Shown: in pieces, positions 12,283-21,588 of the stretch
Position numbering within the stretch: the first letter of the stretch is position 1
Layout: every line of letters begins with the position of its first letter
Assembly (NCBI RefSeq): GCF_033153115.1
Contig: NW_026889750.1
Coordinates: 14,694,001 to 14,758,000, forward strand
DNA length: 64,000 nt
Reading direction: 5' to 3'
Source of the DNA: Saccostrea echinata
Lineage: Eukaryota
The notes under the pieces: model-generated
Told to the model about the DNA's origin: nothing
The model's database searches: none
Seen by the model: the letters and a program-made list of their open reading frames with translations, nothing else
Translations under genes and position numbers: made by a program

Positions 12283-12909
12283 TCATTTCTCTCTCTTTCT
12301 TTCCAGGAAACCTCTCCAGGCACCAATTTCCCATTTCCCGAATTCATCTCTGGACTCTAATTCTTTGTTTCTCTTCTCAGGTTTCAGAATTCCATATTCT
12401 TCATAGTTGTCACCTTGCCTGTAAAACAATCTTTCTAATTCTGGTGTACTGTGAGACATACAAAAATCTGCAAACCAGTGAATTCTAGCCACATTCAGTC
12501 CTCCTACAGGTTTTTTCATTTGAATGAATCCCCTGATTTGATGCACTTTTCCTGTCCAGGGATGAATTTCCTTTTCTAGGATCAGGTATTGAAATTCATC
12601 TTCACAGCTCATGAACATATCTATGTCTTCTTCTTCTCTCACATCTTGGATGACAAATGTCCAGTTAGTGGCTACTCTGTAACTTCTGTATGAGTCCTTT
12701 GAGTCATGGATCTCATCATACTTCTTGTAAACATTACAAGGTTCTTCATCCTCCTCCAGAGTTTTCACTTCCATTTTTCTTTGAGGACTGTAATGTTCTT
12801 CTTCCATATGCATGATCAATCTTTTTTCTAATAACTGTTGTTTTTCCTCATCTATATTCATACTCTCTATTTTTTCTAATAACTGTTGTTTCTCCTCCTC
12901 TATATCCAT
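12283..12909 (-). CDS. Degenerate CRESS-DNA-virus Rep-like HUH endonuclease domain protein (copy 1) with acidic N-terminus
   Basis: NWTFVIQ (motif I); YLILEKEIHPWTGKVHQIRGFIQMKK (motif II region); STPELERLFYRQGDNYEEYG (motif III region); no SF3 helicase. Confidence 0.65.
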   Translation of the reverse strand: MDIEEEKQQLLEKIESMNIDEEKQQLLEKRLIMHMEEEHYSPQRKMEVKTLEEDEEPCNVYKKYDEIHDSKDSYRSYRVATNWTFVIQDVREEEDIDMFMSCEDEFQYLILEKEIHPWTGKVHQIRGFIQMKKPVGGLNVARIHWFADFCMSHSTPELERLFYRQGDNYEEYGILKPEKRNKELESRDEFGKWEIGAWRGFLERKREK

Positions 12910-12996
12910 AGTCTCTGTTTTTTTTCCAAACTGACTTTAACTCATGGTAAGGGTCAACTGATCATGATCATCTACACACCTTTATTTATACCCTCA

Positions 12997-13120
12997 GAGG
13001 GGGTGGTGTGCAAAAATGTGTTGTACCTACGTTTTTTTTACTGAGATACTACTGTGTACGTTTTGTTTACGTTATGCTGAGTCAGACACTACACAAAACC
13101 TTAGATTATGACGTCATACT
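12997..13120. promoter_or_regulatory. Repeated enhancer-like cassette (TGCTGAGTCAG + TGACGTCA + TACGT); also at ~19467-19620, partially at ~8566-8670, and in both TIRs
   Basis: Sequence similarity between copies is direct; factor assignment (AP-1/Maf, CRE) is from consensus knowledge. Confidence 0.6.
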
Positions 13121-13177
13121 GATTCACAGTCTAGGCAAAAAAAACCACACACACACAAAAAGCTCCATGTTATTTAT

Positions 13178-13651
13178 TCAAGTAAATCTACAATCTCTTG
13201 GAATTAATTCTTTGTTTCTCATTTCAGGTTTTAAAGTCCCATATTCTTCATAGTTGTCACCTTGCTTATAAAATGTTCTTTCTAATTCTGGTGTGCTGTG
13301 AGACATATCAAAACAGGTTAACCCATGAATGATTTTGTACATGTTTCTCTCATGGGTCCAGTGTTTCATTTGAAGGAATCCTCTCACATGATGAAGTTTT
13401 CCTGTTTCTGGATGCATTTCTTTTTGTAAGATCAAGTATTGATAATCATTTCTAATGATTTGATCTATATCTTCCTGGTGACCTCCAGTTAAATTAAATA
13501 TCCAATTAGCAGCTCTTCTAAATCTCTCCTTTTTAAATTTAGCAATATAATGATTGCCTGGATCTTCTTTATGTTGGTTCTCATAATGAGTTTTAATGTC
13601 TTTCAACAATTGAGTTCTGATTTCCATGATACATCCTTCTGTCAGACTCAT
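13178..13651 (-). CDS. Degenerate CRESS Rep-like HUH domain protein (copy 2)
   Basis: NWIFNLT; YLILQKEMHPETGKLHHVRGFLQMK; MSHSTPELERTFYKQGDNYEEYG; clear paralog of 12283-12909. Confidence 0.65.
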   Translation of the reverse strand: MSLTEGCIMEIRTQLLKDIKTHYENQHKEDPGNHYIAKFKKERFRRAANWIFNLTGGHQEDIDQIIRNDYQYLILQKEMHPETGKLHHVRGFLQMKHWTHERNMYKIIHGLTCFDMSHSTPELERTFYKQGDNYEEYGTLKPEMRNKELIPRDCRFT

Positions 13652-13770
13652 GTTTGAAACAATGAATTTTTTTTGGTGACACTTCTTTTTTTTATATAGA
13701 TAACAATTCAAAGATAATTTTAAATGATTTATTCAGATTCTACCATGATTCTTTCTCTTACAATCTTATG

Positions 13771-14070
13771 TCAATCTTTTTTTCTCAAAATACTTTTTTT
13801 TTGGACACAGCTTCTTTTAGGTCTTTCAGGATAATCTGTTTTTGGTAATAAATGGGTATATTCTTCTTCTGCAGTCAAGGGTCTTTCAATGTAATCTCTC
13901 CCATCATTATCCTTTTCTGGACATAATTGATTATATTTTTCATGAGAAAGGATCTCAATAGTTCCATCCTCCTGTATTTGAATTGGTATACCTTTATCCA
14001 CATCTTCCTCTCTCAGAACTCTCTTTCCAAATGGAATTTTACTCTTTTCTTGACTAGACGTGTTACCCAT
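13771..14070 (-). CDS. Small hypothetical protein with N-myristoylation motif
   Basis: MGNTSS (MGxxxS); TATAAATA ~50 nt upstream. Confidence 0.7.
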   Translation of the reverse strand: MGNTSSQEKSKIPFGKRVLREEDVDKGIPIQIQEDGTIEILSHEKYNQLCPEKDNDGRDYIERPLTAEEEYTHLLPKTDYPERPKRSCVQKKSILRKKD

Positions 14071-14235: not shown

Positions 14236-14739
14236 TTACAATACATTTTGATAGAAACATTGACAAGTTTGTCCATGACCCGTAGGTCTTTTATGATAAG
14301 TGTCTTTAAACCATTCAGCTACATAATGATCTCTTTGTAATGCTGTACTATGGTCAAAGGGGAATAACCACTCATCTGCGGTTTTTCTCTTCTTGTGTCT
14401 TTGATGTAAATAATACACGCAATATTGTCCACATACATCTGTATTCCAAGCTTGATATCGGTACGGATTATAAATCCATTGTTGAGCATGACGATGGATA
14501 AAATCTTGAATTTCTTTTTGTAAGGGAGGAAATCCATAAGAGTCAAAATATTCGATGACTGGACTGGACAAATACAAACATACCCAATGTTCTCCAGGTT
14601 TATCTTGAGGATCCGTATTCACCACAATGGCTTTTTCTTGAGGTCTTAATTGATTCGGTAATAAATCTAAAGGGTACACACCACCAAAAGAACTCTTTAA
14701 TTCTCTGGATAAGACTTCTTTTAACTGTCCTGTATCCAT
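14236..14739 (-). CDS. PRO: Adenain-like cysteine maturation protease (outer)
   Basis: VNTD..GEHWV..EYFDSYG..Q....VCGQYC catalytic motifs; follows the MCP gene. Confidence 0.95.
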   Translation of the reverse strand: MDTGQLKEVLSRELKSSFGGVYPLDLLPNQLRPQEKAIVVNTDPQDKPGEHWVCLYLSSPVIEYFDSYGFPPLQKEIQDFIHRHAQQWIYNPYRYQAWNTDVCGQYCVYYLHQRHKKRKTADEWLFPFDHSTALQRDHYVAEWFKDTYHKRPTGHGQTCQCFYQNVL

Positions 14740-16160
14740 TAATAATCAATACTGACTACTCTCTGTTTGTTGATTTCTAACAGATTATCGAATTCTGCAT
14801 ATACCACACAATTTAAGGTGTTCACCGTATTGTTGGTAAATTGGACTTCTACTCTCAGATTTCCGGTTTCTATGATATGGAATTTATCCGATTGCGCTTC
14901 TTGATCTTTCGTGAAATCCCAGCCCCATAAAGTGTATCCGTTTTTATACTCTTCTAGGGTGATGTCCGGGGCCCAATCTTCTCCTAATTTTCCCAGTGCT
15001 TGATATAAACTCAGATAAGATCTCAGATATAAATCTTCATTGAAATTAGGTTCGAAACAACGAGTACTCATGGTCTCTCCGTTGATACTGACATCTAATT
15101 TCTTAATTCCCACGTTTTGGAAATGAAACGGATTTTTAGTTTTATCTCCGTTAAATGCCGCATTGTCCACAAAACCTAAAATGATGCGTTTAGGCATCTG
15201 GCCTTGAAACAGATGATCTGTGATTTTAGATTGAGTTCCTGTGAGTATGGTAAAGGTTTTCACTTCGACTCTTCTCAATGGATATTTAGCTCTGTAAGTG
15301 TTCAAACTTTGATTAATACCATTCATCATGACGGCCGTGGGTTTGACTTTTCTCACCCACAAGATCATGCTCAATATTTTGACTTTTCCCGTACTTCCAT
15401 CTTTGATCATCATATAGAACTGAGGTTTAGCTCGATTAAATCTCAAACGGATATCTACTCCATTCGGTAGAAATCGGTCTTGTTGAAATAAATCCAGATG
15501 TAAACGATCATACAAGGTTATTTTCTTACTATCTTTGATAGCCTGGTGACGTTTTCTAAATCCTTCGTTTTTAGAATTGGCCGGTAACTCTGGGACGATA
15601 GGTTTATTAATGGTCACAGTATCGGCAGCACCATGTGCACCTGGGGTTACATCAAATGTCTTATTTTGAGCCACTCCAAGGTCTGCTACCCCTACTTCGT
15701 CCATGTGTCCTGCTGTATCTTTTTCCCACAGACTACAAGCTCTCATCTGGGTCATTAAAGTTCTGGGTTTGTAAGAAAGTAATTTCTCCAGATAAGCTTT
15801 GTAAGGATAAGTATCGGTGCCCGGAGTCACTATTTTTCCATTGACACTGAGATCGATTTCCGTAAACAAAGAATGGAAGATATTATTCACCGGGGCGCAA
15901 GTACTACCAGCTCCAGTCAGATTAGTCCCATCCTCTTTGGTAAATTTACACACTATTTGAACATACGTTTGAGATAAATCCAGATATTGATCTCCTTGTC
16001 CATTAATTTCAAATTCAATAGGAGCCGTATCCGAATCTAAAGTACTGGAAATGGGGTAATATTCTTCCCATTTGGAGTCTTCTAAAGCAATATTAGTCGG
16101 GGGGACTTGGAACAATTCTAAATTGTTCATCCCACACGCACAGGAATCTGGTTGCAACAT
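14739..16160 (-). CDS. PY: Double jelly-roll major capsid protein (outer)
   Basis: [52 protein letters not shown]. Confidence 0.93.
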
Positions 16161-19416: not shown

Positions 19417-19707
19417 GATTGAGCTCAGTGTACTCAAAGCTAAGCCTTATATACCTTTTTATTTATAGGGGGTGGTGTGCAAAAATGTGTTGGACTTACG
19501 TTTTTTTATTGAGATACTACTGTGGACGTTTGATTGACGTTATGCTGAGTCAGGCATAAGCAATACACACAAAATCTTGGCAGAGATTCAAATCACAGCT
19601 CGGTATGCATTGTGACGTCATGTGTCACCAAAAATGTTATAGTTGAAGAGAGAGAGAGAGAAAAAAATAAGACATTTTTTTTTCTAGGTTTTTAATTCAC
19701 AATAACA

Positions 19708-20272: not shown

Positions 20273-20533
20273 TTAACCCTGTACATTGGTGGTCTTCTTA
20301 GGGGTATGATGCATCATTGTAGGACTAGGCATGATATAACCTACTGAAGAACTGACACATACCATCCAATATTCTCGATTAGGATCATGTAAAGCTAACA
20401 TGACCACACTGGTAATGATAAGAGAGACACAGATAAATAATTGGGCGAAATAAACGATTTCTTCTCGAGGAATATTCTCTCCACAAAATTTCCAATGAGG
20501 CGTTATTTGATGAGATCCGTTTGGGGAATCCAT
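20273..20533 (-). CDS. Small transmembrane protein overlapping the integrase 3' end
   Basis: Hydrophobic IVYFAQLFICVSLIITSVVMLAL and WMVCVSSSVGYIMPSP segments. Confidence 0.75.
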   Translation of the reverse strand: MDSPNGSHQITPHWKFCGENIPREEIVYFAQLFICVSLIITSVVMLALHDPNREYWMVCVSSSVGYIMPSPTMMHHTPKKTTNVQG

Positions 20534-21588
20534 GAATCAAAACTAGGGGGATATCCTTTCCACCGAACTTTGACTTCTTGAATGATTTTTTTCCCGACGC
20601 GTCGCTTTTTATACCCCAAGATTTCCTCCACTTCGTACACGTCGTCTTTTTTAATGATCTTTTGTAATTCTTTTTCGTAAAAAGTCCCTTCTAATTCCTC
20701 TCCGTTATAATCTTGCACTCTATACACGTAAGGATACCTTCCAGGAACTCTTTTAGAAATGGTAAACAGTTCTGTGGTCCAGTTAGGTAAATATCCTTTT
20801 TCAAATGTGTGTTTGGCTTTACTGATGCGGACCTGATCTCCTTCTTTAAACTGAGGTTTAAGAAATTGTTTCTGATTCGATATCCCATATAAAGTTTTCC
20901 AGACTTTTAACACATTAGAAGCATTTACTTGAACTGGGGCTCTTTTGATACTCCGATGATAGGTATGATTGTAAGCATACACTAAATCCGGTAAAACTTC
21001 TACATACCGTCTGGTTTTATGACGAGTAAAATAACGCCACATGCGTGCTTTGAGTGTACGCTGAAATCGTTCCACGATACTAGCTTTAGTGTCCGTATTA
21101 CGAGTAGTAAAAAAATGAATGGATTTAAAAGCTTGTAAGAATTCTCGATTGGTAAATTCTTTTCCTTGATCGGATTGAATGCGGACGGGACGTCGACCGT
21201 CTTGTTGAAAAATCTCTTGTAATCCTCGAATCATTTCTTTTCCTGTTTTCTGTTTTAAAGGCACTACCCAGGCATATTTAGATAAGACGTCAATGGCACA
21301 TAATAAAAACGTATATCCATCATTATGTTTCTTTAAACTGGACACATCTGCTAAATCTAATTGCCATTGTTCGTCTATATCGGTCACTCTAGTCTGTTGT
21401 CTCCGGAATTTTCTTTGAATGGGTTTACGTAAAGTATAAGTATCTTGCTCTTTTAACCATTCTCGAATCTTTTTCAGGGAAATTCCTAAAGGTTTAACCT
21501 GACGATACAAAGCTTGTAGTCCTCCGTACCCTCTTTTAGGATCATAATAAATCTCTTTTAAAATATCTTCTACTTGTTTCTTTTTCAT
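20503..21588 (-). CDS. INT: Retroviral-type (rve) integrase with C-terminal chromodomain (outer)
   Basis: WQLDLAD, QSDQGKEF, IVERFQRTLK (DDE); YEVEEIL..VRWKGYP..DSWIP. Confidence 0.97.
   Translation of the reverse strand: MKKKQVEDILKEIYYDPKRGYGGLQALYRQVKPLGISLKKIREWLKEQDTYTLRKPIQRKFRRQQTRVTDIDEQWQLDLADVSSLKKHNDGYTFLLCAIDVLSKYAWVVPLKQKTGKEMIRGLQEIFQQDGRRPVRIQSDQGKEFTNREFLQAFKSIHFFTTRNTDTKASIVERFQRTLKARMWRYFTRHKTRRYVEVLPDLVYAYNHTYHRSIKRAPVQVNASNVLKVWKTLYGISNQKQFLKPQFKEGDQVRISKAKHTFEKGYLPNWTTELFTISKRVPGRYPYVYRVQDYNGEELEGTFYEKELQKIIKKDDVYEVEEILGYKKRRVGKKIIQEVKVRWKGYPPSFDSWIPQTDLIK

Follow-up and report, generated by a model that had tools for sequence, protein, structure and literature searches.

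Two tandem genes of a Saccostrea echinata Polinton derive from the CRESS-virus Rep endonuclease domain and are predicted to have lost nicking activity

We have analysed a window of 64,000 nucleotides from Saccostrea echinata, positions 14694001-14758000 of contig NW_026889750.1 in a host genome of 923 Mb. It holds two Polintons, one nested inside the other, and the outer one carries two tandem open reading frames (ORFs) on the minus strand, RepA and RepB, which are the subject of this work. The first-pass annotation, made from the letters of the window, had read them as paralogous Rep endonuclease domains from DNA viruses of the CRESS type (circular, Rep-encoding, single-stranded) that had lost their activity. 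The two genes and their putative control regions are the following (positions are those of the window).

13178-13651, minus strand: RepA, 157 aa; helix at the N-terminus, then a CRESS Rep endonuclease domain predicted to be nick-dead (about residues 45-143) and a short family-specific tail
12283-12909, minus strand: RepB, 208 aa; N-terminus acidic and with repeats, then a Rep endonuclease domain predicted to be nick-dead (about residues 78-178)
13693-13698, minus strand: TATA-like box of RepA, 47 nt 5' of the ATG; consensus match only
12985-12990, minus strand: TATA-like box of RepB, 81 nt 5' of the ATG; consensus match only
12998-13116, no strand assigned: module 5' of RepB with CTACGTTT, AP-1-like (13078) and CRE-like (13109) motifs

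Both ORFs lie where they had been placed, and they are tandem paralogs with 64 of 113 core residues identical (57%, E 6e-40). All the quoted motifs were found: motif I reads NWIF and NWTF in the two ORFs, motif II YLILQKEMHPETGKLHHVRGF and YLILEKEIHPWTGKVHQIRGF, and motif III STPELERTFYKQGDNYEEYG and STPELERLFYRQGDNYEEYG. The oligomerisation and SF3 helicase domains are absent from both, and the Pfam scan detected no helicase match in either, in agreement with the first reading. The chain ends shortly after the Gly of the last strand (19 residues further on in RepA, 35 in RepB). In many copies RepB starts 12 codons further upstream, in a leader that has a stop at its third codon in the window copy. 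Each gene had been credited with its own TATA promoter; the TATA-like boxes of these putative promoters are there as consensus matches only. Poly(A)-like signals, likewise consensus matches only, follow both stop codons. Positions 12998-13088 of the module upstream of RepB are 90% identical to 19467-19556, and its motif set recurs in both terminal repeats of the element and at 8567-8672, which makes it a putative enhancer; the recurrence in the terminal repeats hints at early expression. An expression look-up, with no RNA run on record, gave low and patchy cover of the genes in four contig sets of guessed type. Residues 111-115 of RepA (window ca. 13307-13321) read LTCFD, and LTCFE in P0001 (a relative from outside the host genome) and in copy L021, within a predicted strand where chance is possible; we take this to resemble the LxCxE retinoblastoma-binding motif.

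Descent of RepA/RepB from a Rep endonuclease domain of the circovirus/nanovirus type is well supported. The Pfam model Viral_Rep (PF02407) matched RepA with E 1.6e-4 and RepB with E 0.024, both under its 26-bit cut-off, and it matched 11 of 12 family members in the range of 15-23 bits, again below the cut-off. A profile of the family searched against 1.84 billion proteins yielded 41 matches, made up of two family members (P0002, P0004), two N-terminal fragments (P0005, P0008) and 37 others aligned over the core. Viral_Rep was recognized in 34 of these 37 (best E of the family profile 1.4e-9), 15 of which also had the SF3 helicase PF00910. Among solved structures, the best match by sequence was the Rep of faba bean necrotic yellows virus (FBNYV), with E 0.09 for the single sequence and 0.04 for the profile; matches at E 0.1-2.4 (IL-10 receptor, tetanus toxin Hc fragment) were discarded as chance. 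A language-model feature search of the Atlas placed CRESS Rep clusters at the top (0.93-0.94) with a recognition value of 1957, below the 2300 mark and weak if taken alone. For RepB residues 70-200 the Atlas also gave, as a lead only, a eukaryotic cluster of 52 members (most commonly Cnidaria, 212 aa, score 0.90).

A first fold model, built from an alignment of 40 rows, had a predicted local distance difference test (pLDDT) score of 85.7. It matched the Rep' of porcine circovirus 2 (PCV2) with Z 13.7 and a root mean square deviation of 2.4 over 98 residues, the Rep of duck circovirus with Z 13.5 and that of FBNYV with Z 11.3, against Z 6.0 for the best unrelated fold. Papillomavirus E1 (Z 8.6) and polyomavirus T antigen (Z 7.6) came lower, ORF119 of the rod-shaped virus 1 of Sulfolobus islandicus (SIRV1) reached only Z 5.0, and the best match by Foldseek was 6wdz (E 9e-6). 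What counts against this support is that 30 of the 40 input rows of the model were Rep-like matches, so that the fold and the sequence evidence overlap; for that reason the fold was also predicted from the 12 Polinton-type rows alone. The result (pLDDT 64) had CRESS Reps at ranks 1-4 with Z 7.1-7.3, values that do not settle the matter by themselves. The CRESS-Rep origin and the HUH/Rep fold proposed in the first-pass annotation were thus upheld by the predicted-structure search and by the reciprocal profile matches.

In a tree of 47 rows the 10 Polinton-type rows fell on one side of a branch with support 93/91, with the RepA and RepB groups separate. The duplication that gave rise to the two genes predates the splits from the outside sequences, because each group contains some of them. 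The backbone of this tree singles out no donor lineage. Three sequences from metagenome contigs (P0011, P0012 and P0039) are other degenerate Rep domains. P0011 shares the motif RGF(I)xMK with the family, and it joins the RepA/RepB group together with P0039 at 98/93, both on long branches; an exact-word scan of metagenome contigs, weak as a negative, confirmed no genomic context for P0011. No fused longer form appeared among 4124 candidates of 449-2000 aa, which is weak evidence, and a PF02407 search of the host genome for an intact Rep was without match and uninformative, as the controls were silent too. The patchy distribution leads us to infer that the transfer went from a CRESS virus to the Polinton.

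The catalytic residues were compared between 10 Polinton-type rows and 30 Rep-like matches, with PCV2 numbering mapped and a gap-free register at motif III. The nucleophile, Tyr in 29 of the 30 matches, is Phe in all ten Polinton-type rows. The same ten have Gln (FY[KR]Q) for the Lys of motif III found in 27/30 matches, Arg at the third position of motif II for the metal-ligand Gln (28/30), and Asn, Val or Ile for the Thr of motif I (28/30), and the Asp/Glu that follows the motif III Lys in 24/30 matches is a Gly or a gap. The one-residue insertion in motif II, already pointed out in the first reading, is present in 10/10 Polinton-type rows and 0/30 of the other matches. The Glu of beta2 (Glu78, equivalent to Glu48 of PCV2) is retained.

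This pattern is nearly uniform among the copies of the host genome, of which 52 of RepA and 58 of RepB were taken from 70 fetched loci (30 of them being the best RepA matches). The nucleophile site is Phe in 50/52 RepA and 57/58 RepB copies and Tyr in none, the metal-ligand site Arg in 52/52 and 57/58, and the site of the motif III Lys is Gln in every copy (52/52 and 58/58), while the motif I Thr site is Asn in 50/52 RepA and Val in 58/58 RepB. Tyr128, kept in 51/52 RepA and 58/58 RepB copies, occupies the Cys position of Reps, one helix step from the nucleophile. In PCV2 Rep the metal is bound by Glu48, His57 and Gln59, and the Y96F mutant is inactive yet binds the origin 10-mer (PMC7826260); motif I's Thr and the Lys/His in motif III have been described as conserved helpers (PMC8780604). 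From these four to five replaced residues, nicking is predicted to be lost in RepA/RepB, on more grounds than the first-pass annotation had given, as the Phe for Tyr, the Gln for Lys, the Arg for the metal-ligand Gln and the loss of the motif I Thr go beyond its signs.

Judged by substitution ratios, RepA and RepB are nevertheless maintained by purifying selection. The ratio between the paralogs, which had been proposed as a check, is ca. 0.35 (dS 0.89, dN 0.31), with dS/dN values of 0.80/0.15 for the beta2-beta3 segment and 0.45/0.12 for motif III plus tail. RepB variants common to several copies have pN/pS of 0.24 and 0.33 (p 3e-5 and 3e-4), whereas singletons are neutral at 1.13. Omega was 0.43 over 38 distinct RepA and 0.39 over 54 distinct RepB sequences, changes after insertion included. 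Binning pairs by dS biases the ratios and was left out of this claim. In the 10 Polinton-type rows 43 residues are invariant, 10 of them rare in 27 canonical Reps. Seven family-specific invariants (H80, R90, L123, E124, F127, Y128 and Q130) lie within motifs II and III or next to them, so that the former cleft appears to be still under constraint. Some RepB copies (L009, L010, L011, L017 and L021) are mosaics of subfamily types, with a window-type N-terminal half joined to the specificity strand of another type in L010 and L011, which indicates recombination between elements.

The setting of the two genes in the window is as follows.

7422-51712, no strand assigned: outer Polinton, with AGTAGT termini, inverted repeats at both ends, 6-bp target duplication TAAGTA
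about 7422-7901 and 51230-51712: terminal inverted repeats of the outer Polinton
8797-9294, plus strand: PP1-binding ORF, PF10488 E 3.2e-6 (over cut-off); candidate host modulator
10255-11166, plus strand: RING-like ORF, zf-C3HC4_3 E 0.0025 (below cut-off); candidate host modulator
11668-12162, minus strand: macrodomain-like ORF, weak matches (DarG E 5.7e-4 over 38 residues; 2fg1/2afc E ca. 0.003)
13771-14070, minus strand: 99-aa ORF starting MGNTSS, occurs with RepA
14236-14739, minus strand: protease, 30% identity to the Peptidase_C5-like protein of the inner element
14739-16160, minus strand: major capsid protein, 30% identity to the DJR-like protein of the inner element
20503-21588, minus strand: rve integrase with C-terminal chromodomain
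23032-44502, no strand assigned: nested Polinton, 184-nt inverted repeats, target duplication CATTCC; unrelated, of another group
45391-46023, minus strand: A32-like ATPase of the outer element
46066-46692, minus strand: IAP of the outer element
46711-50790, minus strand: protein-primed DNA polymerase B (pPolB) of the outer element

Without the nested element the outer Polinton measures ca. 22.8 kb. Its pPolB, rve integrase-chromodomain, ATPase, protease, capsid, terminal repeats and 6-bp target duplication are those of a Polinton/adintovirus, which bears out the location given in the first reading. The integrase-chromodomain is a hallmark of adintoviruses, which are described as animal-associated (PMC11071296, PMC8502044), and this points to an animal host. 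The nested Polinton (23032-44502) has no Rep-like gene; it has a CARD-PC4 gene (23931-24911) and a polymerase split over two ORFs (30541-32049 and 32280-35243). For an element of 23 kb, the outer one has a rich set of candidate host modulators (PP1-binding with PF10488, RING-like, macrodomain-like and IAP). The MGNTSS start of the 99-aa ORF is presumably a myristoylation-like motif. In three outside RepA relatives (P0001, P0002 and P0045) an N-terminus similar to the 99-aa ORF is on the same chain as RepA, which could reflect a fusion or a split of the two genes.

RepA and RepB are abundant in the host genome and at the same time optional. At least 59 near-full-length RepA matches were found there (88-100% identity, 53/59 without internal stop) among the 150 of 219 candidates that were scored, and RepB occurs also alone in other subfamilies, with at least two other gene orders. 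We took a census of the best 150 of 319 capsid candidates, counting Rep genes within 20 kb among the matches listed: 57 loci had both genes, 21 RepB only, 4 RepA only and 68 neither. This is in line with the remark of the first-pass annotation that it knew of no such standard Polinton gene. Six of the 68 Rep-less loci were fetched and none had a Rep match in 20-30 kb. Five of the six hold polymerase, ATPase, integrase, capsid and protease (three of them with split frames), and one is without the polymerase end; their termini were not located by the probe used. At ca. 45 loci a macrodomain 80-82% identical comes directly after capsid and protease, which suggests that a large, recently spread Rep-less subfamily exists. 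The cassette between the protease and the RING-like gene varies from the 99-aa ORF plus RepA, RepB and macrodomain, to RepB, to the macrodomain, to none. As many related capsid loci have neither gene, RepA/RepB are accessory in cis, and since they are optional they would not be the origin factor of the element itself.

Outside this genome, relatives 54-72% identical (P0001-P0004) are known on short ENA contigs only, and are assumed to sit in Polintons. No other genomic context was confirmed, either in viral contigs (searched with the RepB core, the family alignment and the capsid) or in metagenome contigs (exact-word scans, weak as negatives). We found no report of a Rep-like gene in Polintons or adintoviruses in the literature covered, to which Repbase and most subscription papers do not belong.

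A wholly palindromic non-autonomous Polinton derivative of 21 kb was found at two sites of the host genome, C12 ca. 12355700-12376790 (L069, L091-L094) and C3 ca. 13644610-13665650 (L070, L095-L098). It has two arms of 10.5 kb that are 99% identical, with the left terminus at both ends, and a central spacer of ca. 155 nt that is flipped between the sites. The 6-bp target duplications differ (GTTGAT and AACATT). It has no polymerase, integrase or capsid match, and the frames of RepA, RepB, the 99-aa gene and a 141-aa ORF are open. It looks like a snap-back defective genome that was integrated twice.

What could two predicted nick-dead Reps be doing in such an element? The reading that we tentatively favour, at something short of an even chance, is that RepA/RepB are optional accessory proteins of CRESS-Rep origin that bind without cutting and act against co-infecting ssDNA viruses; interference with CRESS viruses had also been put forward in the first-pass annotation as something that they could do. 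The nicking domain of a CRESS-virus Rep would have been captured by a Polinton without its oligomerisation and helicase parts; it split into RepA and RepB, and is retained by purifying selection while being present or absent among sister elements. The proteins would be nuclear and expressed early, along with the host modulators encoded at the left end. Their remodelled cleft may hold ssDNA uncut, like the engineered Y96F domain of PCV2, so that bound RepA/RepB could cover ssDNA loops, for example the origins of co-infecting ssDNA viruses, and block the active Rep; variable 5'-specificity residues would broaden the range of targets. A target outside the element is favoured because the neighbours of the cassette (PP1-binding, RING-like and macrodomain-like) are candidate host modulators, and because nonanucleotide sites are not in excess in the element (6 NANTATTAC sites against 6.9 expected; a 7-bp stem accompanies one of them, which is located in the capsid gene). 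In a bolder form, which we consider doubtful, these would be modular anti-ssDNA-virus cassettes in which dead Reps, their cleft rebuilt and their specificity strands swappable, clamp CRESS origins, and an integrated dsDNA virus shields the host cell. If true, two-gene, one-gene and no-gene variants of such a cassette lie side by side in one genome.

Several observations weigh against a bind-only role. The domain of RepB is acidic, with a net charge of -3 to -8 in 7/7 rows, and that of the window RepA is -2 (+2 and +1 in P0001 and P0002), compared with +1.6 +/- 1.9 in 27 CRESS domains. Basic residues of the alpha2-beta4 segment number 3-4 in RepB rows versus 3-9, and the base-reading His of the ssDNA-bridging motif, present in 23/30 matches, is found in 0/10 Polinton-type rows. 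The same segment, which spans the first half (5'-specificity) of that motif, has pN/pS of 1.3-1.55, above the rest (Fisher p 0.003) and not significantly above 1 (p 0.28). Positive selection on it was rejected on this last count, and relaxation explains the rate as well as diversification does. The tail has invariant residues (P142, N146 and E148) without counterpart in Reps and may be a protein interface. Finally, in RepA copies taken alone purifying selection is not significant (pN/pS 0.43 and 0.33; p 0.09 and 0.06). The acidity of RepB, and the lack of constraint on half of its DNA-specificity strand, weaken the idea of a binder.

In the strongest of the alternatives, possible though improbable, the domain has ceased to bind DNA and instead binds a protein partner, either of the host or of a virus. 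The acidic RepB, the lost basic and base-reading residues, the new invariant tail, a Glu124 beside the old cleft and the neighbourhood of PP1-binding, RING-like, macrodomain-like and IAP genes would all fit. However, the partner is not known, the strongest new constraint is at the former DNA-cutting cleft, and outside RepA relatives retain a basic alpha2-beta4 segment (6 K/R).

Less likely is that RepA/RepB are optional regulators of the DNA of the Polinton itself, binding terminal repeats, displaced single strands or promoters. Inactivated HUH domains are known as origin binders (PMC13595969), and E1 and T antigen are among the fold matches; besides, the palindromic derivative keeps RepA/RepB open at its two sites, with the zinc-knuckle and macrodomain genes broken. 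Yet neither gene is present at 68/150 related loci, 5/6 fetched Rep-less elements keep their core genes, there is no helicase partner and the nonanucleotide is not in excess, although the proteins might be supplied in trans. The first-pass annotation had suggested an origin/hairpin binder that could regulate the element; a required role at the origin or ends of the element is not supported, given the Rep-less loci and the lack of nonanucleotide excess.

A rewired active site, with Tyr128, Glu78, His80, His87/88, Arg90 and Glu124 as a new catalytic or metal site, seems quite improbable. These residues are invariant or nearly so (Tyr128 in all but one of the copies) and RepA retains a His-Val-Arg in strand register, but position 128 corresponds to a Cys in 28/30 Rep-like matches and lies one helix step from the nucleophile, no Lys/His follows Tyr128 and RepB has Gln-Ile-Arg. 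The very remote reading of decaying passengers without function, for which one could invoke that the genes are dispensable and that, of the older copies checked, only 6/18 have a full RepB frame (13/18 for RepA), is largely refuted by the selection estimates (dN/dS 0.35 between paralogs, 0.24-0.33 for shared RepB variants), by intact outside members in both clades at 54-72% identity, and by the fact that frame breaks are expected after insertion.

Compared with the CRESS Reps themselves (PF02407; PCV2 6wdz/2hw0/8h56, FBNYV 6h8o/2hwt), the bind-only candidates RepA/RepB share the fold, the order and spacing of motifs I-III and the equivalent of Glu48, and differ in that the equivalents of Tyr96, Lys99, Gln59, Glu100 and the motif I Thr are replaced, motif II has an insertion and only the endonuclease part is present. 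Papillomavirus E1 and polyomavirus large T have origin-binding domains that are also an inactivated HUH fold in a dsDNA virus, but there the domain is joined to an active SF3 helicase in what is the replication protein of the virus (PMC13595969), whereas RepA/RepB are stand-alone, optional and much closer to circovirus Reps (Z 13.7) than to E1 and T (Z 8.6 and 7.6). HUH genes are also known in mriyaviruses and the Zora-group, mid-sized jelly-roll dsDNA viruses, and are duplicated in gamadviruses (PMC11253617; bioRxiv 10.64898/2026.06.19.733378). Those of mriyaviruses keep their catalytic motifs and are nearest to the SIRV1 Rep, with a proposed part in initiating replication; the element with RepA/RepB has a protein-primed polymerase of its own. 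U94 of human herpesvirus 6 is likewise an ssDNA-virus Rep with inactivated endonuclease motifs in a dsDNA virus, though of parvoviral origin and with helicase motifs partly kept (PMC10193959).

The closest parallel is found in avipoxviruses, as described in the same report (PMC10193959). There apvRep-1, -3 and -4 are captured CRESS Reps reduced to the endonuclease, with HUH/HUQ inactivated, without the Tyr and dispensable; they are under purifying selection (0.23 for apvRep-1), and the function of apvReps is given as unknown. By that description RepA/RepB are alike in being a CRESS Rep in a dsDNA virus, endonuclease domain only, inactivated, present as paralogs, under purifying selection and dispensable. 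They differ in their carrier, a 23-kb integrating Polinton with two-, one- and no-gene sister elements in one genome. By their Polinton carrier RepA/RepB fall outside the apvReps proper, which go with a krikovirus/draupnirvirus donor and an Avipoxvirus carrier. The kind of event is therefore already published for avipoxviruses (PMC10193959), and what is new here is the Polinton carrier and the optional nature of the genes. Kinsella and van der Hoek (2023) proposed a decoy role for apvReps and discounted it since poxviruses are cytoplasmic (PMC10193959), an objection that should not apply to RepA/RepB because their carrier is an integrating element. RepA/RepB point to a transfer of genes from small ssDNA viruses to a Polinton of an animal, and repeat, apparently independently, the avipoxvirus outcome of an endonuclease domain only, with its catalytic residues replaced and kept by selection. 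The role of dead Reps should be easier to test here, with small proteins, the structure of the engineered PCV2 Y96F with DNA for comparison, a presumably nuclear carrier, and a single genome in which natural elements have two, one or no Rep genes.
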